From a virus: DNA of 64,000 nt. The stretch is from the IMG/VR virus record IMGVR_UViG_3300033146_003479, positions 70,397 to 134,396 of that record; one strand, given 5' to 3'. Positions 3,304 to 63,733 of this stretch are shown here, in pieces. The notes under the pieces were generated by a model. The model did no database searches and was not told the origin of the DNA. It worked only from the letters and a program-made list of their open reading frames with translations. Position 1 is the stretch's first letter. Every line of letters begins with the position of its first letter. The position numbers and the translations under genes were made by a program.

Positions 3304-4986
3304 ATGGGTGGAAATTCACGAGCAATAAATAGAGAAACTGGTGAAGTTCAATCAATTAATGGAACTCCCGTATTTGCTCAAAAACTTGATTTGAGAGTAG
3401 TTAATCGAAGAGTAGTTGTTAGTTTATTTACAAACACGTTCATCAATTTGTCTTCCATGTATGCTCAACAAAATCTTGGCAATCAATTGTGGGAACTGAA
3501 GAGAGAACTTTTCTCGACAGGATTAGTATACAATGGTTCATCTGAGCATTTATTCAATGATAGCATATCGGATGAAGAATTTGTGAAGTATAAACCGTTA
3601 CTTGGTGATATTGATATTACCGTCGATGGAACAAAATTATCGAAGGTATTTGATTTATTAATTTTACTAGAAGGTAAAATTATCTATGAGAATGTGGACG
3701 GATTCATTCGATATATCGGTCAAAATAAATCTAAATTCCAAGGTGAGCAAATAAATTCTGTATTTGAGTTGAATGTGAATGATAAGAGTCATTATGTTCA
3801 GGTTGATTTTGAAGGAGTCGTTTATGAAAATGGAGTTCCTGATGAATTTTCGAAATTCGGACATTCATCTGATTGGTATGATATAACTAATGGTATTAAA
3901 GGAGTTGCTCATAAGTTTTTAATCATGAATTTAGTGCGAGGGAACACTTATTTATCTCCATCTCAAGGGATTCTTTTAACTAATGGTTCGATTGAGGATC
4001 CCAATTCCGATAAATTAAGAGTTTCGGCTTCTCAGAAATATCTAAAGACATTTGCGTTTTCGATAACTAAAGGGCTTAGAAAGAAGGTTCGATATATTGG
4101 ATTAAAAGATAGTATTCCTATGTATAAAGAATTATCAACATCCAATTCAATATATCAACGAGATTTGGTTGATATATTTCAAACTATATTTAATGTTTCT
4201 CCAAAAAAAGGAGAAATGAAGAAGTTCAGATCATTCATTGGAGTACTTGAACTTATTCAAAAATATTTTGATGTTAATGATGAACGTATCGCTCGAACTT
4301 TTGATTTCTTATTGGATATAAATTTATTTGGAAATTCTGCTCAACGTTTAGATAGAGATAGTATGAAGGTGGATTTTGAGGTGAAGTATAATATGTTGGA
4401 GAAAATCTTTGAGTTTATGCCTCAGTTGAAAACCTCAGATCGAACTGAGAAGATTAAGCATGCGATTGATTCTTATTATACTGTCCAGAATTATTTTAAA
4501 AGTAAAAATATAAATAAAACTACAGATAAAGCACAAATAGGAGAAAAAATGTCTGATACTATACAAAATGAAAATGCTCTTCGTCGAATCATTCAAGAGG
4601 AGATTCAATTGATATTGAATGAAGATAGCAAATTGAATAAAACTTTATCTAAATTATTGAAGATTGTTAAGGAGACCGTGGGGCAAAAAGATTCTCGTAA
4701 AATAAAACGAGTTTTTATTTCATCCGATGGATCTAAATGGGTTGAAATTGAAATACCAAATACAACATATTCGTTGTCTTTAAATTTAAATAAAGATGAG
4801 ATTTCATATGGCACAACTAAAATTGAAAAACTTTTTAAAATCAAAAGTTCAACTGCATCTAAGGAGTGGTTAGAGCATTCAAATAAACTTTTAAGGTATG
4901 CTGAAGACATTAAAGGTATTATGAAGATTTATGCGAAAATGAAGAAGTCCAAAAAAATTAAAACATTTATAGAAAAAGAACTTTAG
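3304..4986 (+). CDS. Pol-beta-like nucleotidyltransferase (MGGN start, GDID motif) fused in frame to a second protein starting at 4549
   Basis: LGDIDI and QVDFE acidic motifs; internal TATAAATA (4509-4516), GGAG (4540-4543) and ATG (4549). Confidence 0.6.
   Translation: MGGNSRAINRETGEVQSINGTPVFAQKLDLRVVNRRVVVSLFTNTFINLSSMYAQQNLGNQLWELKRELFSTGLVYNGSSEHLFNDSISDEEFVKYKPLLGDIDITVDGTKLSKVFDLLILLEGKIIYENVDGFIRYIGQNKSKFQGEQINSVFELNVNDKSHYVQVDFEGVVYENGVPDEFSKFGHSSDWYDITNGIKGVAHKFLIMNLVRGNTYLSPSQGILLTNGSIEDPNSDKLRVSASQKYLKTFAFSITKGLRKKVRYIGLKDSIPMYKELSTSNSIYQRDLVDIFQTIFNVSPKKGEMKKFRSFIGVLELIQKYFDVNDERIARTFDFLLDINLFGNSAQRLDRDSMKVDFEVKYNMLEKIFEFMPQLKTSDRTEKIKHAIDSYYTVQNYFKSKNINKTTDKAQIGEKMSDTIQNENALRRIIQEEIQLILNEDSKLNKTLSKLLKIVKETVGQKDSRKIKRVFISSDGSKWVEIEIPNTTYSLSLNLNKDEISYGTTKIEKLFKIKSSTASKEWLEHSNKLLRYAEDIKGIMKIYAKMKKSKKIKTFIEKEL
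4509..4551 (+). promoter_or_regulatory. internal late promoter, SD and start codon nested inside the 3304-4986 ORF
   Basis: TATAAATA at 4509, GGAG at 4540, ATG at 4549. Confidence 0.6.
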
Positions 4987-4995
4987 GAGAACAGA

Positions 4996-5535
4996 ATGAA
5001 AGTAACATTGTCTGAGAAAAGTCTAAGGAGATTAATTCGTCAAGAGACGACTAAACTGTTAAAGGAACAAGAGGAAAATGCATTTAATACGATCGATGAT
5101 ATGCAAAGTAAGTTTATAGAGGAGTTTAATAAAATTCTTAAAGAAAAATGGGCAAGAAAGATCAAAATGTTAAAATACGTTGATAATAGTTTTCAATTCA
5201 TTTTAATTGGTGATGGTGATGAACGAGTTAAATTGGAATGGAATCCTAAATGGGATGTAACAATTAAAGGTAAAATTAAAGTGTCTCCAATTAAAGCCCT
5301 TAGAATTGGACTTGAATTTTCCGAAAAAATGTATCGAGTTATTGTAAAAATTATTGAGAATGAGAAGGTTATTTATCCTATATTGGAAGAAATTTCTACA
5401 ATGATGAAGGATGGTGGAATGGGTAAAGAAGAGGTTAAAGATACTTCTGAAAAAAAAGTTGATGACTCTTTAACTGATGAATCTTCAACTGATGAATCTA
5501 ATAATGATAGTGAAAAAGGAGAAAAAGATGCGTAA
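4996..5535 (+). CDS. hypothetical protein, possible head-internal protein (LRRLIRQE..LKE leader, acidic tail)
   Basis: GGAG SD; N-terminal motif shared with several other ORFs. Confidence 0.6.
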   Translation: MKVTLSEKSLRRLIRQETTKLLKEQEENAFNTIDDMQSKFIEEFNKILKEKWARKIKMLKYVDNSFQFILIGDGDERVKLEWNPKWDVTIKGKIKVSPIKALRIGLEFSEKMYRVIVKIIENEKVIYPILEEISTMMKDGGMGKEEVKDTSEKKVDDSLTDESSTDESNNDSEKGEKDA

Positions 5536-55256: not shown

Positions 55257-58200
55257 ATGAATGTAATTAAAAGAGATGGTAATATTGTTGCCTTTAATTG
55301 GGAAAAGATTTTTAATGCTGTTCGCAAAGCATTTGACGAGAGTGAAATAAAATATTCTAAAGAGAGTTTAGATATGATATTTGGCGATCTTAGAGATTGG
55401 TTTGACACGCAACATTATAAAAAATCAGAAATGAAAGTAGAAGATATTCAAGATCAATTGGTTATATGGATGCATAGTAATGCATATCACAATCAAGCAA
55501 TAAAATTTATGAAATATAGAGAGCGACGAAGTATTGCAAGAGGAGTCAATTCGGTAGATTCAGTTTCATTGATTGATGATTATCTAAATAAAATAAATGA
55601 TATGGATATAAATGAAAATTCATCAACAATGTGGAGTCTTCAAGGACTAAATAATCACATTTTCAGTTCGCTTTCTGAGAAATATTGGCTTAGTCTGTAT
55701 TCCGATGAAATTAAAGATGCTTTCGATAGAGGGAGAATTCATATTCATGATTTATCCACCATCGGAGGGTATACTTATTACGGAAAAGAGACTGTTATAA
55801 TTAAACGAGACGAACAGATAATATTTTCATCTTTCGAAAAATTATTTGATGATTTATTGCCGGCTATGATTCGAGAAGAATATGTGGAAAGCGACGATGC
55901 CACGATTAGATACATTCGAGATGTGAAAATATTAGATAAGAATGGATGGACAAATTTACAACGAATTATCAAAAAGCGAAAGAATAAAGATATGCGATAT
56001 ATTCGAAATGAAAATGGAAAGGATATTATAGTCACAGATGACCATCCAATGATCATCAAAGATTATGAAGAAAAAAAATCTCAAAATGTAGTTGAGAACG
56101 AAGATTCATTATTGAGCGTTGATGTTATTAATATTTTAAAGACCGAAAATGAAAAATTATTCCATAAAGATCATATTTTGTTAAGTGATGAATTTAAAAA
56201 AAGAAATATTACAAAATTTAACGATAAAAAACAAATATATTTACATGGACGCCCTATAGATTTAAATGCAGAATTTAATGATAGCGATGAATTTTATATT
56301 AATAATCAATCATCAATGACTAATAGAATTGATTTGACTTATGATTTTGGGTATTTTATTGGATTTATGCTAGCAGAAGGACATTTATCTATAAATACAG
56401 ATGATATGTTTTCACCAATAATATCAATTTCCCAAAAAGACCCTGAAAAACTCATTCAACTTCATGATATGATGAATAAAAATAATGCGTTTGGATGCAT
56501 AAAGAATAATTCTATTGTTTTTTCAAATTACTTTTTAACATTCATAATTGGTTCCATTTTCAATATTACTCCTGGATCATATAATAAAAGTTTACCTGAA
56601 AACATATTAGAATACTCTAAAGAATTCAACTTAGGAATTATCGATGGTCTTATTGATGGAGACGGATTAGCAGGAAATAATTCGTATACATTAAGATTGA
56701 ATAATAAAACCATATTAAATCAAGTTTCAACTTTATTGAGAGGGTTTGGATTTTTTCCAAAAGGACAAACTCCCTTTGGAGCAAACACTACTCATCATTT
56801 TCAAGACAAAGAAATACATCAAAATTATGATATCATGGGAATCATTTTTAGAAATGTTAATGATACTCTTAAATGCGATAAGTCGTCTAGAGTGACTCGA
56901 TCTACTTCAAAAAAAGGATGTATTGATCACTTTAAAGAGGGATGGTCTAAAGTTAATAAAAACACTATAGTTCAAATTAAAGATGAATATATTTATGATA
57001 TAACTACTCAAACTAATACTTTAATTGTTAATGATATGTGGAATCACAATTGTGCCGGCTGGGATTTGAAAGAAGTTATAACAAAAGGATTCGGAGGAGT
57101 TCCTGGGAAACCATCATCCGCTCCACCAAAACATTTTTCTTCGGCTCTAAGTCAAGCCAACAATTTCATTTTCACACTTCAAGGTGAAACTGCTGGAGCC
57201 CAAGCGTTTAGCAACTTCAATACTCTGATGGCTCCATTTGTGTTTTATGATAATCTATCATATAAGCAAGTAAAGCAAGCCATACAAGAATTCATTTTCA
57301 ATCTTAATATATCAACTAGAGTGGGATTCCAAGCCCCATTTTCAAATTTGACCTTAGATTTAGACCCATCTAAGACCAATTACGCTGATGATTATGTAAT
57401 TGTTGGTGGAGAAATGCAAGAAAAACAATATAAAGATTTTAAACGTCAATCTGAATGGATTAATACTGCAATAATTGAAACTATGGAGGCTGGCGATGCA
57501 AATGGAGCAATGCTTAGTTATCCAATAATAACGTTCAATGTAACTAAAGATTTTCCTTGGGATAACAAATTTGGAGATCTACTTTTGAAAACTACTGCTA
57601 AATATGGATCCTTTTATTTTGCTAACTATATTAATAGTGACTATTCCTCCAGCGACGTTACTTCGATGTGTTGTCGACTTAGAATTGATAGAACCGAAGT
57701 TGAAAAACACGCTAAAAGTCTACAGGGACTTGAAAGTGAAGAATATGAGACCTCTCATCAAAAGGGTGGTGGGTTTTTTGGAGCCGCACCTAAAACAGGA
57801 AGCATTGGAGTTGTAACTTTAGGATTACCTGCAATTATGCATGATGCATATCAACATGAAATTCATACCGCTAAAATATATAAACTTGATACTGATACAA
57901 CCGAACAATTAATGGAAGATGTTTGGGTAACATTTTTAGATAAAGTTAAATATTATATGGATTTAGCAATTGAATCTCTTGAAAAGAAACGAAAAGTTAT
58001 TGAACAAAAAGCAGATTTAGGATTATATCCATACCTTAAAGTTTATCTTGCTGACATTAAGAAGAAAACTGGACAATATTTCGCTCAACATTTCTCAACC
58101 ATTTGTCCGAATGGTTTTCATGAAGCATTGATTGAATGGGGATTAAAAGATGGTATGATGTCGAAAAAAGGACAAGATTATGCTGAAAAACTTCTAAAAT

Positions 58201-58718
58201 TCATGACAGAGTATTCCATCATTCTTCAAAAAGAAAATAGGTGTCTTCTTAATATAGAACAGGCTCCTGCTGAAAGTGCTGGAGTAAAATTATGTACAAA
58301 ATCGGGTATAGATCCTCTTAATAATGGATACTATACAAATTCAACTTGGTTACCTGCGGATAAACCAAAAGATACATTTGAACAAATTAATATTCAAGGT
58401 AAATTAAATGAATATTATAGTGGAGGAAGTTCTCTTCATACATATACTGATGCTGATTTAGTTCCAATCTATAAAGATTTGAAAAAAATCATTCTTTATG
58501 CATTCGAGAATACTAAATTACCATATATGACAATTAGTCCTGTGTTTAGTGTTTGTGAGAATTGTGGTAGAATCCCTGGCAGACATTCTGTTTGTCCAAA
58601 ATGCTCATCGGAAAAAATGCAAACTTTCTCCAGAGTAGTTGGATATTATAGAGCCGAATCAAACTTCAATGAAGGTAGAAGAAAAGAAGCAGAAGAGAGA
58701 TATTTTCCTAAAATTTAA
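55257..58718 (+). CDS. nrdD: class III anaerobic ribonucleotide reductase with ATP cone and cis intein
   Basis: VIKRDG ATP cone, HIHDL, CAGW, MCCRL, Zn ribbon CENC..CPKC, glycyl radical SRVVGY. Confidence 0.95.
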   Translation: MNVIKRDGNIVAFNWEKIFNAVRKAFDESEIKYSKESLDMIFGDLRDWFDTQHYKKSEMKVEDIQDQLVIWMHSNAYHNQAIKFMKYRERRSIARGVNSVDSVSLIDDYLNKINDMDINENSSTMWSLQGLNNHIFSSLSEKYWLSLYSDEIKDAFDRGRIHIHDLSTIGGYTYYGKETVIIKRDEQIIFSSFEKLFDDLLPAMIREEYVESDDATIRYIRDVKILDKNGWTNLQRIIKKRKNKDMRYIRNENGKDIIVTDDHPMIIKDYEEKKSQNVVENEDSLLSVDVINILKTENEKLFHKDHILLSDEFKKRNITKFNDKKQIYLHGRPIDLNAEFNDSDEFYINNQSSMTNRIDLTYDFGYFIGFMLAEGHLSINTDDMFSPIISISQKDPEKLIQLHDMMNKNNAFGCIKNNSIVFSNYFLTFIIGSIFNITPGSYNKSLPENILEYSKEFNLGIIDGLIDGDGLAGNNSYTLRLNNKTILNQVSTLLRGFGFFPKGQTPFGANTTHHFQDKEIHQNYDIMGIIFRNVNDTLKCDKSSRVTRSTSKKGCIDHFKEGWSKVNKNTIVQIKDEYIYDITTQTNTLIVNDMWNHNCAGWDLKEVITKGFGGVPGKPSSAPPKHFSSALSQANNFIFTLQGETAGAQAFSNFNTLMAPFVFYDNLSYKQVKQAIQEFIFNLNISTRVGFQAPFSNLTLDLDPSKTNYADDYVIVGGEMQEKQYKDFKRQSEWINTAIIETMEAGDANGAMLSYPIITFNVTKDFPWDNKFGDLLLKTTAKYGSFYFANYINSDYSSSDVTSMCCRLRIDRTEVEKHAKSLQGLESEEYETSHQKGGGFFGAAPKTGSIGVVTLGLPAIMHDAYQHEIHTAKIYKLDTDTTEQLMEDVWVTFLDKVKYYMDLAIESLEKKRKVIEQKADLGLYPYLKVYLADIKKKTGQYFAQHFSTICPNGFHEALIEWGLKDGMMSKKGQDYAEKLLKFMTEYSIILQKENRCLLNIEQAPAESAGVKLCTKSGIDPLNNGYYTNSTWLPADKPKDTFEQINIQGKLNEYYSGGSSLHTYTDADLVPIYKDLKKIILYAFENTKLPYMTISPVFSVCENCGRIPGRHSVCPKCSSEKMQTFSRVVGYYRAESNFNEGRRKEAEERYFPKI
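55773..57050 (+). mobile_element. 426 aa cis intein with LAGLIDADG homing endonuclease; begins with Thr
   Basis: Exteins rejoin as HDLSTIGGY|CAGWDL; TDDH block B, FMLAEG and GLIDGDG, IYDIT, WNHN/C. Confidence 0.88.
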
Positions 58719-59625: not shown

Positions 59626-61530
59626 TTAAAAAAGCCAACTAACATCTTCCATTGTTTTTCTTACGTCCTTTTCTTGCTGAGTTACTCTTGGAACTCCATC
59701 TTTAGCACTGATTATGAGATTTGCATTTTGATCTTTTTCTCGTTGCATATCTTCCTTGGCTTGTTGCATAACAAATGGATCTTTTCCGTTAGCAATATGC
59801 TTAAAATATTGTTGAGTTTTTGCTAAATATGAAAAATTCAATACTGTCATAGTTAAATCATCATGATATCCGGCTTCTGCTCCATATGTATATTTAATAG
59901 GATGTAATATGAAGTGATATAATTCATCGTATGCTTGAGGATCTAATATGATCAATTTTCCACTTTCAATTAAAAATTTCATATATTCAGCACCTTGCTT
60001 TTTTGTTCGCTTAGTGGTTCTAATTCCTAATTCATAATATTTTCCCTCTTTCAATTTAGATTGACTATTTAAATTTAAGTTAACAATATTTTCATATTCT
60101 AAAGTGTGCCATAAATCTTTTACTACTCCATCACCAATTGAATTATTCTCAATTAACACGTGAGCAGTATTATAATACATACCTAATTGATTGATTACAT
60201 ACGGATATTCAATGTTATTAATTCCGTCATTATAAAAAGTAGCAACTTGTTTAAATGGAACTTGAGTGATATCAAATACGGAAATAGCCGAATAATCTTG
60301 CTCTTTACCTTCTGCAACATCTACAGATAAAACATATAAATGATCTTTTATTGGAGTTCCCGAAATTTGTTTGATAGGCTTTTCAAATATTCTAAGACCT
60401 TTTATGAATTTTCCCTCTAATGTCAATTGAATATCTAAAGCGTCCACTTTAAATTCTCTTTCTAGACTCTCTAATAGTTTACCATCAATCAACATATCGG
60501 ACGTATCTAAAAAGTCGCCAGCATACTCTTGATTAAATTTCTCAATACTTCCCATTTCTTGAATTTGCTTTGCTCTCCATTCTTCATCTCTATCTGGATG
60601 AGCGTCCCATGATATTTCACTAGCAACAAAAGATGAATGACCTAATTGAGCATCTCTAAAGAATCTCCAAAAATGGTTTTTACCTTTAGGAGTCGAAGTG
60701 ATCAGAATTCGAGCAGTCACCGATGATGCAATAACAGGAAACGTCGACTCAATAAATGCTTCAACTAAGTTCTTTGGTATTAATGCAAACTCATCAATAT
60801 ATAATAACGCAATTGATTTACCTGAAATTGAGGCTGCTGATGTGGATGCCGCAATTATTTGACATCCATTCTCGAACGTTATAGAATGCTTATTGAATTC
60901 ATGTATTCCTGGCTTCAAAAACATAGGTAAATTATAATATGTTAATTTTATTCTATCAAGAATTTCCTTTGTAGTACTTTGTTTATTTGCTAATATAGCA
61001 ACATTCTTATCCTTATTGAACATCACAAATATTAAAATAAAAGCCGCGGCTACAGTAGTATTGTGACTTAATATGTCATTTGTATAAAAAGTGTGATCAC
61101 TATCATCACTTAATTGTAAATCATACATGTTTTCTTGTCTAGAGAATTTTTGGACATATTTCACTCCTTGAAGTCCCGTTTTCGTTTGAATTAAATTTCC
61201 ACATCTCAAGGATCGTAAGCGTTGCTTTTCGTGAAGATCATTCATAACTAAATGATCATCTGCTCCTCGAATTATCGAATCATCATTTAGTTTCACTTGC
61301 CACACGTCATATTGCACAGTCTTAAATGAATTCTTTACTTTATTCCAACCATTGTGACTTTTTACCCAAAATGACTCATCGAAAATAGTCTTTTCAATAA
61401 ATTTCAATTCATTATTGTTATATATTTCAACATCGTCCTGATGTCCATATTTATCATGAAATTCTCTAATAGTTATTTCCTCATAATCATATATCCAGCG
61501 TTCCAATATATGTTTTATCCACTTGAACAT
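59626..61530 (-). CDS. terL: large terminase C-part, preceded by split-intein C-fragment (157 aa, 61530-61060)
   Basis: ADDH, MYDL, ILSHN/T; then TTVAAA, ILANK, YIDEFA Walker B, TSTPKG, SVDVAEG, ENNSIG, HDDL as in T4 gp17. Confidence 0.93.
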   Translation of the reverse strand: MFKWIKHILERWIYDYEEITIREFHDKYGHQDDVEIYNNNELKFIEKTIFDESFWVKSHNGWNKVKNSFKTVQYDVWQVKLNDDSIIRGADDHLVMNDLHEKQRLRSLRCGNLIQTKTGLQGVKYVQKFSRQENMYDLQLSDDSDHTFYTNDILSHNTTVAAAFILIFVMFNKDKNVAILANKQSTTKEILDRIKLTYYNLPMFLKPGIHEFNKHSITFENGCQIIAASTSAASISGKSIALLYIDEFALIPKNLVEAFIESTFPVIASSVTARILITSTPKGKNHFWRFFRDAQLGHSSFVASEISWDAHPDRDEEWRAKQIQEMGSIEKFNQEYAGDFLDTSDMLIDGKLLESLEREFKVDALDIQLTLEGKFIKGLRIFEKPIKQISGTPIKDHLYVLSVDVAEGKEQDYSAISVFDITQVPFKQVATFYNDGINNIEYPYVINQLGMYYNTAHVLIENNSIGDGVVKDLWHTLEYENIVNLNLNSQSKLKEGKYYELGIRTTKRTKKQGAEYMKFLIESGKLIILDPQAYDELYHFILHPIKYTYGAEAGYHDDLTMTVLNFSYLAKTQQYFKHIANGKDPFVMQQAKEDMQREKDQNANLIISAKDGVPRVTQQEKDVRKTMEDVSWLF

Positions 61531-61559
61531 CTATATTACTCCATTAATTGTTATAGTGT

Positions 61560-61614
61560 TATTTATGGAAATCGGACATCAATCATTCTAATTGATTTAT
61601 ATTATTCATAAATA
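61560..61614. promoter_or_regulatory. divergent late promoters for the two terminase halves
   Basis: CATAAATA on minus strand (61560-61567) and on plus strand (61607-61614); AGGAGG SD at 61640-61645; GGAG SD before 61530. Confidence 0.7.
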
Positions 61615-62148
61615 TAATATAATATAATAATATGATATGAGGAGGTTTCATATGACAAAAAAATTATTGAACGATGATCTGGAGGTTCAAGCGTATGAGG
61701 AATTCATGCAACAGTTGGCAGCCGAAGATTGGACAAAATCAAAAAAAAGAGAAAAGCCAGATTTAGAGGATTTCACACATGATGTGAACGATAAAGAAAT
61801 CGCATTTATGGGAGATGCGAGAATAAAGCCAGCAAAAACTGAATTGCCTTTGATGAAAACAGGTAAATATGAAGAGTATGCAAAAGAAATATATCATTGT
61901 TATACTAATCCTCTATATACCATAAAAAACTACTTCAAAATTATTCATCAACAAAAGGGGCAAATCGATCTGGTTCTGTATGATTTTCAAGTTCAATTCA
62001 TTAAAAGTTGCTTGGAGAACACCAGACTCATCGCTAAATGGCCTCGACAAGTGGGCAAATGCGTTGTTGGTTCTACAAAAATTAATATTCGACGAGAATC
62101 TAAGAATTATTTTAAAAAGAATATATTAAAATTAATTAGAAAGATTGA
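61579..62148. repeat. imperfect 20 bp inverted repeat (18/20) bounding the terL N-half
   Basis: 61579-61598 TCAATCATTCTAATTGATTT vs reverse complement of 62129-62148 TCAATCTTTCTAATTAATTT. Confidence 0.75.
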
Positions 62149-62161
62149 CTCCACATTTTAA
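61652..62161 (+). CDS. terL: large terminase N-part fused to short split-intein N-fragment (33 aa, 62060-62158)
   Basis: NPLYTIKNY, LYDFQ Q-motif, KWPRQVGK Walker A start, then CVVGSTKI; AGGAGG SD. Confidence 0.9.
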   Translation: MTKKLLNDDLEVQAYEEFMQQLAAEDWTKSKKREKPDLEDFTHDVNDKEIAFMGDARIKPAKTELPLMKTGKYEEYAKEIYHCYTNPLYTIKNYFKIIHQQKGQIDLVLYDFQVQFIKSCLENTRLIAKWPRQVGKCVVGSTKINIRRESKNYFKKNILKLIRKIDSTF

Positions 62162-63176
62162 TTATCTCATTTACATGGAAATCTATTATGGAATCTTTAG
62201 TTTCATTAAAATCTTTTTCCCAAACATCATAGAAAATGACATTCTCATCGATTAATATTTGTTTTTTAATTGCATCTTTTTCCCAAATTTCATGAGCATA
62301 TTTTTTACCTATCATATCTGTTTTATTATATAATTTTGGATTTGCATGCCAATAATCTCCTTGAAATTCAATGCAATAATTTAATCTCGAAACAAAAAAG
62401 TCTAATGTGAAGGGTGAATATTTTTTATATTCTGTATTTAATTCTGCAAAGTGACATTCTTTTTGAATAAATTTAGGCAATTTATTATATATATGCCAAA
62501 ATAACTCTTGTGAAATTTGAGAATAGTTGTTAAATGACATACTATTGATCCATTTAATCTGTCTATTTTTCCAAATTTCTAATCCTTTAATTTGTCCATA
62601 TTTCAGAATACATTTGTCCTTTGAAAAGGTACATTGTCGTTCGCTTAATTTTAGACGAGCATCTTCTTCATTATATCCTTGATTTATCCAATATAATAAC
62701 GTGGTACTATTATTGCCATTATTTTTATGACTATTTGAGTTTTTCATTTTCACTTGTTCAATTTTCAATCTTATATTATCCGACGAAAGGTGTTCATAAT
62801 TAAGATACTTCAAACTCATCGGACTAAATTTGCCTTGATGATCGTATGCAACATTTAATTTACCTTTCATTCGGTTGGAAGCCGATGTTTGATATTTTTC
62901 GGATCGAACATCGTTTGATGTTAAATTATATTTCAAATAGTATTCTTCAATTTTAATATTATGAGTTACTGTAATGTGTGGAATTAAATCATTCTCACTA
63001 GCAAATCCGCAAATTTCGCATCGAATGACATCGCTTCGATTTGAATATTTAATCTTGTTTTTTGTTAAATCTCGTTGACGACGTTTTATAATGGAACATT
63101 GACGACATAACTTTTGATATCCTCGTTTGCTTTTATCAATGAATGTATTTTGACAAGTTAAACAAATTTTCTCCAT
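62136..63176 (-). CDS. free-standing homing endonuclease, Vsr-like PD-(D/E)xK (EDxHD-type), with N-terminal zinc fingers
   Basis: CxxC..CxxC and C2H2 fingers; LDFF..CIEFQGDYWHAN..KD..K..VWE. Confidence 0.8.
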   Translation of the reverse strand: MEKICLTCQNTFIDKSKRGYQKLCRQCSIIKRRQRDLTKNKIKYSNRSDVIRCEICGFASENDLIPHITVTHNIKIEEYYLKYNLTSNDVRSEKYQTSASNRMKGKLNVAYDHQGKFSPMSLKYLNYEHLSSDNIRLKIEQVKMKNSNSHKNNGNNSTTLLYWINQGYNEEDARLKLSERQCTFSKDKCILKYGQIKGLEIWKNRQIKWINSMSFNNYSQISQELFWHIYNKLPKFIQKECHFAELNTEYKKYSPFTLDFFVSRLNYCIEFQGDYWHANPKLYNKTDMIGKKYAHEIWEKDAIKKQILIDENVIFYDVWEKDFNETKDSIIDFHVNEIIKMWSQSF

Positions 63177-63733
63177 TAACTGCTTAGAACTTTAATATTA
63201 GATTTTTTCTGTGCTTCAATGGTTCGCCTTTCCATATTTAACTCAATCATAGATGAAATTAAATCATTTGTATTTTGAATAGTCGCTACACTACCTTCAA
63301 GTGTACCATTATTCTCAACTTTCACGTTTATCTTATTCGCTGGGACTTCAATGACTGCCATATTTAATTCAGAAACCATCTGAAACATTTTGGCTAAAAC
63401 TTCAAATGCCATATGTTTATTTGAAAGATTGCTAATCACAGTTACCATATATTCATTTAACATGAATTTGGCTTTCTCAAGAAGTTCGATTTTGTTTTCA
63501 AGAACATACTTATCTAAGTCCTCTTGATCAACTTGAGATTTTAACATATCTATTTTCAGTTGGATTTGATTTAATTTTTCTTGACGTAACTTTTCAACTT
63601 CCTCATCTGACATTTCTAATATTTCATTTATATTTTGACTATTGGAGTTTGCTGAAGGTATAGTATCTCTAGCAATTGATATTCCTCCTCGAATTAGATC
63701 ATCAATACTGGAATTATTATTTTCATTTGACAT
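63176..63733 (-). CDS. terS: probable small terminase subunit, T4 gp16-like
   Basis: AFEVLAKM..NN..TNDL pattern, helical; position upstream of the terL locus; TAATG coupling to the endonuclease. Confidence 0.6.
   Translation of the reverse strand: MSNENNNSSIDDLIRGGISIARDTIPSANSNSQNINEILEMSDEEVEKLRQEKLNQIQLKIDMLKSQVDQEDLDKYVLENKIELLEKAKFMLNEYMVTVISNLSNKHMAFEVLAKMFQMVSELNMAVIEVPANKINVKVENNGTLEGSVATIQNTNDLISSMIELNMERRTIEAQKKSNIKVLSS

Follow-up and report, generated by a model that had tools for sequence, protein, structure and literature searches.

The window analysed here comprises the final 64 kb of a 134,396-bp IMG/VR contig that was estimated to be 60% complete. Its composition is 67% A+T and its source is an uncultured T4-like phage, in the relatives of which gp13, gp15, neck and sheath genes are present. 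The locus described below carries a TerS-like gene, a gene for a free-standing homing endonuclease and an ORF of 634 aa (IntC–terL-C, 61530-59626) on the minus strand and, between the last two, an ORF of 169 aa (terL-N with IntN, 61652-62161) on the plus strand. The two ORFs, which encode the halves of a large terminase subunit interrupted by a split intein, lie on opposite strands, head to head, with 121 nt between them (Table 1). A ribosome-binding site (AGGAGG at 61640-61645) was found 6 nt upstream of the terL-N ATG, and the TerS stop overlaps the endonuclease start in the sequence TAATG.

Table 1. Features of the split terminase locus, with positions counted from the first base of the window
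Feature	Position	Strand	Basis or context
terL-C extein, starts TTVAAAF..., rest of ATPase and nuclease domain	59626..61059	-	Pfam Terminase_6N, E 9e-21; Terminase_6C, E 1e-9
IntC, 157 codons, all intein blocks but the first, ends ...DILSHN	61060..61530	-	alignment to gp41-1 intein
Mirror copy of CATAAATA facing terL-C	61560-61567	-	motif
Candidate stranded end of pre-inversion IntN tail (...MIDVRFP*)	61563..61585	-	putative coding origin
Left repeat arm TCAATCATTCTAATTGATTT	61579..61598	.	in the spacer (121 nt) from which terL-C and terL-N diverge
T4-late-promoter-like box CATAAATA facing terL-N	61607..61614	+	motif; putative promoter
terL-N extein, 136 aa, ends ...WPRQVGK (first half of Walker A)	61652..62059	+	phrog_5989 terminase large subunit, E 1e-11
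IntN, 33 codons (CVVGSTKINIRR...KLIRKIDSTF) and stop	62060..62161	+	Cys1 after GK as in all homologues
Right repeat arm AAATTAATTAGAAAGATTGA	62129..62148	.	covers tail codons of IntN and the end of the endonuclease gene (final codons and stop)
Free-standing homing endonuclease gene, 346 aa	62136..63176	-	homology to locus endonucleases of relatives; phrog_22677
TerS-like small terminase subunit, 185 aa	63176..63733	-	position in relatives

The terL-N extein aligned with the N-terminal parts of the proteins P0002-P0004 and also with the unsplit proteins P0034, which is intein-less, and P0036, which has a contiguous intein. Residues 48-184 of P0036 aligned with the plus-strand terL-N ORF, IntN being colinear with residues 152-184, and the minus-strand ORF was colinear with P0036 from P0036 residue 228. 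IntC was 37-49% identical to the IntC of relatives, and its residues 56-157 could be aligned to the gp41-1 intein (PDB 6QAZ, residues 29-128, E 2e-5), including DDHL/EEHL and the terminal HN, which places block B (DDHL) and all later blocks in the IntC of the window. A phmmer search of IntC against all PDB chains at E ≤1 returned no TerL intein, the only matches being gp41-1 chains (6RIZ, with E 3e-4, besides 6QAZ). The catalytic residues Cys1, block-B His, terminal HN and +1 Thr were all present, and the predicted splice product would read ...RQVGK-TT..., as compared with ...RQSGKTTT... in P0034. This intein-less junction, the colinearity with P0036 and the alignment to gp41-1 show the two ORFs to be pieces of one protein. 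Judging from these alignments, terL is broken inside the P-loop by an intein that is split after its first motif (...RQVGK / C...SHN / TT...), and the terL-N and terL-C proteins would be joined by trans-splicing. The split TerL-N form appears to be widespread: a profile search returned 1702 proteins at E ≤0.001, the best 150 of which were mostly 104-234 aa long, and the short proteins inspected among these best 150 of 1702 were terL-N pieces ending in IntN.

The TerS-like protein had no match in Pfam or PHROG, so that its name rests on its position in relatives. It was 35-50% identical to the product of the gene preceding terL-N in L003, L013 and L012, and the same homologue adjoins gp15 in L008 and L009. 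The endonuclease combines an N-terminal Ros/MucR-like zinc finger with a putative C-terminal Vsr-like / PD-(D/E)xK nuclease carrying the motif EFQGDYWHANP. It was 35-51% identical to the products of genes that separate the two terL halves in L003 and L013 and that lie directly upstream of terL-C in L009 and L010. Across five endonuclease homologues, D259, E270, G273-D-Y-W-H277 and D301 were invariant (motif EF.GDYWHANP). Three of the five family members matched PF18741 (REase_MTES_1575; best E 3.6e-6) and one weakly matched DUF559 (E 0.058), with no match to either for the window protein itself, and a profile search of the PDB gave no Vsr or I-Bth0305I matches. The endonuclease would be in keeping with the Vsr-like family described from fractured genes by Dassa et al. 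Its gene is located here between TerS and the 3' end of terL-N, outside the terL-N/terL-C pair.

We then searched for relatives of the locus. No close DNA relatives were found by megablast against GenBank phages, and tblastn of TerL-N and the endonuclease against phages gave distant matches only (<32% identity). A peptide-pattern scan of IMG/VR based on the single TerL-N sequence found no relatives, as did an alignment-based scan of metagenome contigs, and the alignment-based scan of IMG/VR returned distant or unsplit TerL only. The TerL-N and TerL-C protein clusters had one member each, that of TerL-N being on one contig. The best relatives had protein identities of 38-58%, and a near-identical copy was not found in the collections.

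Both halves were present in five independent related split loci, and they were co-directional in all five. L003, L013 and L022 showed the canonical fractured gene, in which terL-N is followed by an endonuclease gene of the same family and then by IntC–terL-C, and in L003 and L013 TerS precedes terL-N and is coupled (TAATG in L003). L012 has the order TerS, TerL-like fragment, terL-N and terL-C with no endonuclease gene between the halves, and in L015/L016 terL-N precedes terL-C at a distance of 175 nt. The window is the only flipped case among those split loci. In L009 and L010 the endonuclease gene precedes terL-C and the contigs end upstream, and in L008 terL-C stands alone with a diverging upstream neighbour. 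L002, with the closest TerL-N (56% identity), has nrdD, two small genes and terL-N followed by opposite-strand genes, so that terL-N lies near nrdD and on its strand, as in the window, and apart from TerS and terL-C. Contiguous inteins in a single ORF were found in L019, L021 and L023. Gene order around terL was heavily scrambled among relatives at ~50% identity, and the side and strand of TerS relative to terL-C varied (L008, L009). The first-pass annotation had proposed that the flipped state is derived, and the co-directional halves in all five related two-half loci bear this out. The particular ancestor that it predicted, a relative in the order TerS, endonuclease gene, terL-N and terL-C with a tail ending in ...IRMIDVRFP, was not found among the relatives.

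Further inteins and endonuclease genes were observed in this phage group. Homologues of a second homing endonuclease family (phrog_3339 / phrog_559, motif EFCGLYWH) lie upstream of TerS in L012 (L012:110-1003), directly upstream of terL-C in L011 (L011:3-473) and in the window's own contig at bases ~3650-5330, ~126 kb from terL; endonuclease genes change slots around terL in this phage group. In L012 (L012:1672-2304; 210 aa, matching terminase phrog_5989) and L004 (L004:5226-5963), the true terL is closely preceded by an additional short ORF that resembles the TerL ATPase; these ORFs may be left over from N-terminal parts of terL that were duplicated or degraded. Several relatives stack terL inteins: in L003 (L003:6038-8413), the Walker B region of TerL-C contains a second intein, which is contiguous. 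In L006 (L006:4941-9496), the fracture is at Walker B (...LLCIDE / S...); the halves are separated by an unrelated gene of 225 aa, and another intein follows downstream. In the IMG/VR contigs L030, L031, L034 and L036, the endonuclease family of the window's terL locus is found immediately before a related IntC, with no TerL extein detected downstream, which suggests that the same intein-endonuclease pair also occurs in other host genes. The nrdD gene of the window (55257-58718, plus strand; 1153 aa) encodes, at residues ~180-610, a complete intein that has a LAGLIDADG domain (Pfam NRDD, Intein_splicing and LAGLIDADG_3). At another site (...SMC / ...HN / CRLRID), which is free of inteins in the window, the nrdD of L002 has a different intein of ~300 aa. 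From this comparison, intein presence therefore differs between relatives at two nrdD sites.

Inverted repeats on both sides of terL-N had been described in the first-pass annotation, and their anatomy was confirmed, as were all the reading-frame details given there. The left arm matches the reverse complement of the right arm at 18 of 20 positions, with an identical 8-bp core (AATTAGAA). It reads CAA TCA TTC TAA, as compared with CAA TCT TTC TAA at the end of the endonuclease gene (62147-62136), and on its other strand it continues as ATG ATT GAT GTC CGA TTT CCA TAA, a frame whose stop (61565-61563) precedes the terL-C ATG (61530) by 32 nt. It also holds a small palindrome of its own (ATCAAT...ATTGAT). 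At the other border, TerL-N ends in ...KLIRKIDSTF* at 62161, and over its final 26 nt IntN runs antisense to the endonuclease gene's end, in a tail-to-tail overlap (62136-62161). It is also true that every ORF stays intact in both orientations, but the argument is weak: the endonuclease stop is in the core and a stop is expected within ~7 codons of any junction at 67% A+T.

The significance of the repeat depended on the scale at which it was assessed. It is the sole inverted repeat with at least 18 of 20 matches and a gap of at most 1000 nt within the 64-kb window, and block-wise dinucleotide shuffles of the window (n=30) contained on average 1.2 such repeats, with at least one in 11 of the 30. 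As a window-wide signal the repeat is thus unremarkable, whereas within the zones at either border of the flipped gene (106 x 121 nt), which were picked after the repeat had been seen, it was matched in only 4 of 5000 shuffles. When four junction zones were paired in 12 ways, inverted or direct, the terL-N border pair was the only outlier (0/600 shuffles), the next best combinations being reached in 54/600 and 58/600 shuffles. We consider a link between the repeat and the flipped terL-N piece probable, although it is not overwhelming given that the border zones were chosen post hoc. Separately, the terL-C leader at 61540-61551 on the minus strand (CAATTAATGGAG, then TAA) resembles the junction of the TerS stop and endonuclease start at 63171-63182 on the same strand (CAGTTAATGGAG) at 11 of 12 bases. 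This direct match (CARTTAATGGAG) was not significant (110/600 shuffles); the likeness could be a scar of an older junction.

In the spacer, the region 61555-61620 forms a two-tier imperfect palindrome, the outer arms of which are the facing CATAAATA boxes and the inner arms ATCAAT/ATTGAT in the left repeat arm, and RNA folding of the divergent spacer predicted a weak hairpin (z -0.15 to -2.0), with z of ~-1.4 to -2.0 for the palindrome itself. Since neither the CATAAATA nor the TATAAATA motif was enriched in the window, the promoter function of CATAAATA is putative; scans for sigma-70 promoters and terminators gave nothing above shuffles. The candidate ...MIDVRFP* tail stops within a CATAAATAA box that precedes the terL-C ATG by 28 nt, and a comparable TAAATA(A) box was found 24-28 nt before the terL-C ATG in L008, L009 and L010. 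The candidate tail had been read earlier as stranded coding sequence pointing to the ancestral state, but this argument does not decide the matter because IntN tails vary freely among homologues. While ...MIDVRFP resembles ...VKFID and ...NINFID, ...KIDSTF resembles ...PTFF, ...PAFF and ...NNNF, and the comparison does not single out an ancestral tail. Both tails retain ...ID..F, and the IntN of GOS-TerL still works when cut from 37 to 27 aa (PMC11766414).

We infer, with modest confidence, that terL-N underwent a single, tolerated inversion between short repeats, and we take the present orientation to be fixed. In the ancestor, the order would have been TerS, endonuclease gene, terL-N and terL-C, and one event of illegitimate recombination or replication template switching between the short inverted repeats would have flipped a segment of ~550 bp (~61590-62140) containing terL-N, its ribosome-binding site and the late-promoter-like box. 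Such a flip would have been survivable in that the halves would be joined as proteins by trans-splicing, making gene orientation irrelevant, in that the terL-N piece would have carried its own expression signals along and in that the break would fall in the last ~7 codons of IntN, which are variable in relatives and dispensable in GOS-TerL. The new six-residue tail of IntN (KIDSTF) would then be an antisense reading of the endonuclease gene end, and the 26-nt overlap would be accounted for because a junction inside two gene ends would leave such an overlap.

Inverting terL-N alone predicts repeat arms at the endonuclease/terL-N and terL-N/terL-C borders, which are the observed sites. Two nested inversions from the order TerS, terL-N, endonuclease gene and terL-C, in either sequence of events, predict an arm at the TerS/endonuclease border; no repeat was found there (best 14-15/20, not significant). 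The single inversion needs an extra step that placed the endonuclease gene between TerS and terL-N in the precursor, because the endonuclease gene directly precedes terL-C in L003, L013, L022, L009 and L010. It may plausibly have been moved or re-inserted, as it is a mobile gene and the second family occupies varying slots in L011 and L012, with a copy elsewhere in the contig. The strand shared by nrdD and terL-N in the window and L002 could mean that the flipped orientation is old; if so, a non-coding arm matching at 18 of 20 positions should have decayed. If the entire terL locus was linked to nrdD in the ancestor, the shared strand would be a one-in-two coincidence. Other rearrangement routes are possible because gene order around terL is so heavily scrambled.

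A less likely, though quite conceivable, reading is that the repeat is a coincidence and that terL-N was placed by module shuffling, for instance by relocation of terL-C and its neighbour beside an already separate terL-N. About one such repeat is expected per shuffled window (mean 1.2), and relatives supply the pieces of such a history: terL-N alone in L002, terL-C alone between diverging genes in L008, TerS on variable sides and strands (L008, L009), the second endonuclease family in variable places (L011, L012) and the nrdD-to-terL-N same-strand linkage common to L002. However, a chance repeat must hit both borders of the flipped piece, which occurred in 4/5000 local shuffles and was the sole outlier of the 12 junction tests, and the 26-nt convergent overlap fits a breakpoint in two gene ends.

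The first-pass annotation had also raised a reversible switch. A working switch would flip during infection through UvsX-type recombination or endonuclease-triggered repair and thereby alter the IntN tail, the terL-N transcription unit and antisense transcription over the endonuclease gene. The repeat does bracket a self-contained gene piece with complete ORFs in both orientations, ...ID..F is kept in both tails and, if the orientation were as old as the split from L002, retention of a partly non-coding repeat at 18/20 would need selection. We nevertheless found no support for a switch and consider it very unlikely. As had been remarked for the window, no site-specific recombinase is visible: PF00239 and PF00589, for serine and tyrosine recombinases, had no match in the whole 134-kb contig (estimated 60% complete) while controls responded. 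The 8-bp identical core and two mismatches in 20 are far below the ~50 bp that efficient homologous recombination in T4 reportedly needs, a figure ascribed to Singer et al. in 1982. No comparable repeat surrounds terL-N in L002, the single-member protein clusters contain no variant with the other tail, and the other orientation is not represented by any recorded copy. That ORFs stay intact both ways is a trivial expectation where the DNA is AT-rich and the tail dispensable. The junction of the alternative orientation (a 39-mer with two degenerate positions) was absent from viral and metagenome contigs, which says nothing about switching because the present junction was likewise absent when its own record was left out.

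An assembly or amplification artefact, with the flipped 550 bp as a chimera, is similarly improbable. The record is a single metagenome-derived contig, and multiple-displacement amplification creates inverted chimeras at short complementary stretches. Against this, both junctions would need to be wrong together, the 8-bp identical core is too short to mislead a k-mer assembler, and the four genes are intact with sensible signals (the terL-N ribosome-binding site, the TerS/endonuclease TAATG coupling and the box before terL-C); moreover, relatives assembled independently also show halves that are unlinked or differently oriented. It is also very unlikely that the terL-N cassette of 550 bp forms an invertible element independent of any recombinase, flipped usefully often by phage recombination or repair or after endonuclease cleavage, in which case terminase maturation would be gated by orientation (through the IntN tail, the promoter and antisense over the endonuclease gene) and the repeat kept by selection.

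The proposed fixed inversion of terL-N can be compared with several known systems. Hin/Gin/Cin, the fim switch and shufflons share the geometry of a short segment between inverted repeats, a flip of which would change the C-terminus of a protein and its transcription unit. Unlike in these systems, no dedicated recombinase was found in the contig, the repeats are imperfect with an 8-bp core and nothing points to two orientations, so that the likeness is geometric only.

The cyanobacterial split DnaE intein and the split PolB of Nanoarchaeum equitans likewise have halves in separate genes that are joined as protein, leaving adjacency and strand free, and Wu, Hu and Liu are said to have described in 1998 that dnaE-n and dnaE-c of Synechocystis lie on opposite strands. 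Those halves are far apart and without an endonuclease gene, whereas the halves in the window are 121 nt apart with the endonuclease gene still present. Closer in host protein are the terminase inteins GOS-TerL, AceL-TerL and Cat-TerL, which are natural, atypically split inteins with an IntN of 25-37 aa and an IntC of 104-115 aa (PMC11766414). As in the window, their host is TerL and the break follows the first motif, the window having an IntN of 33 aa and an IntC of 157 aa.

The closest parallel is provided by the fractured genes of Dassa, London, Stoddard, Schueler-Furman and Pietrokovski (2009; PMC2677866), where a phage housekeeping gene is likewise divided between two ORFs by a split intein and the locus also holds a free-standing Vsr-like homing endonuclease gene. 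They described a gp17 terminase locus from Lake Gatun with the intein broken at an unusual point and a C part holding all motifs except N1 (PMC2677866), and the exact layout of their fractured genes is seen in L003, L013 and L022. The palindrome in the spacer also recalls the late-promoter-containing hairpins upstream of their endonuclease genes. The window shares the division into two ORFs by a split intein; however, its endonuclease gene is not between the halves, as theirs is, and its halves share a locus but lie on opposite strands, while fractured genes keep both orientation and locus (PMC2677866). A split intein with a free-standing endonuclease gene is therefore a known arrangement, and the flipped terL-N is the new feature.

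The locus reveals no new mechanism. Split inteins let a gene survive cutting, and one half could then be flipped in place without loss. The locus offers a natural test of the IntN tail length needed for splicing, with some use in engineering atypically split inteins. Dassa et al. predicted a stepwise genomic uncoupling of fractured-gene halves, with the split DnaE and split PolB as the fully uncoupled end state (PMC2677866). The window looks like an intermediate toward this uncoupling, with the halves head to head and still adjacent and the likely breakpoints still readable, and would thus provide a concrete case for the uncoupling step in their model.
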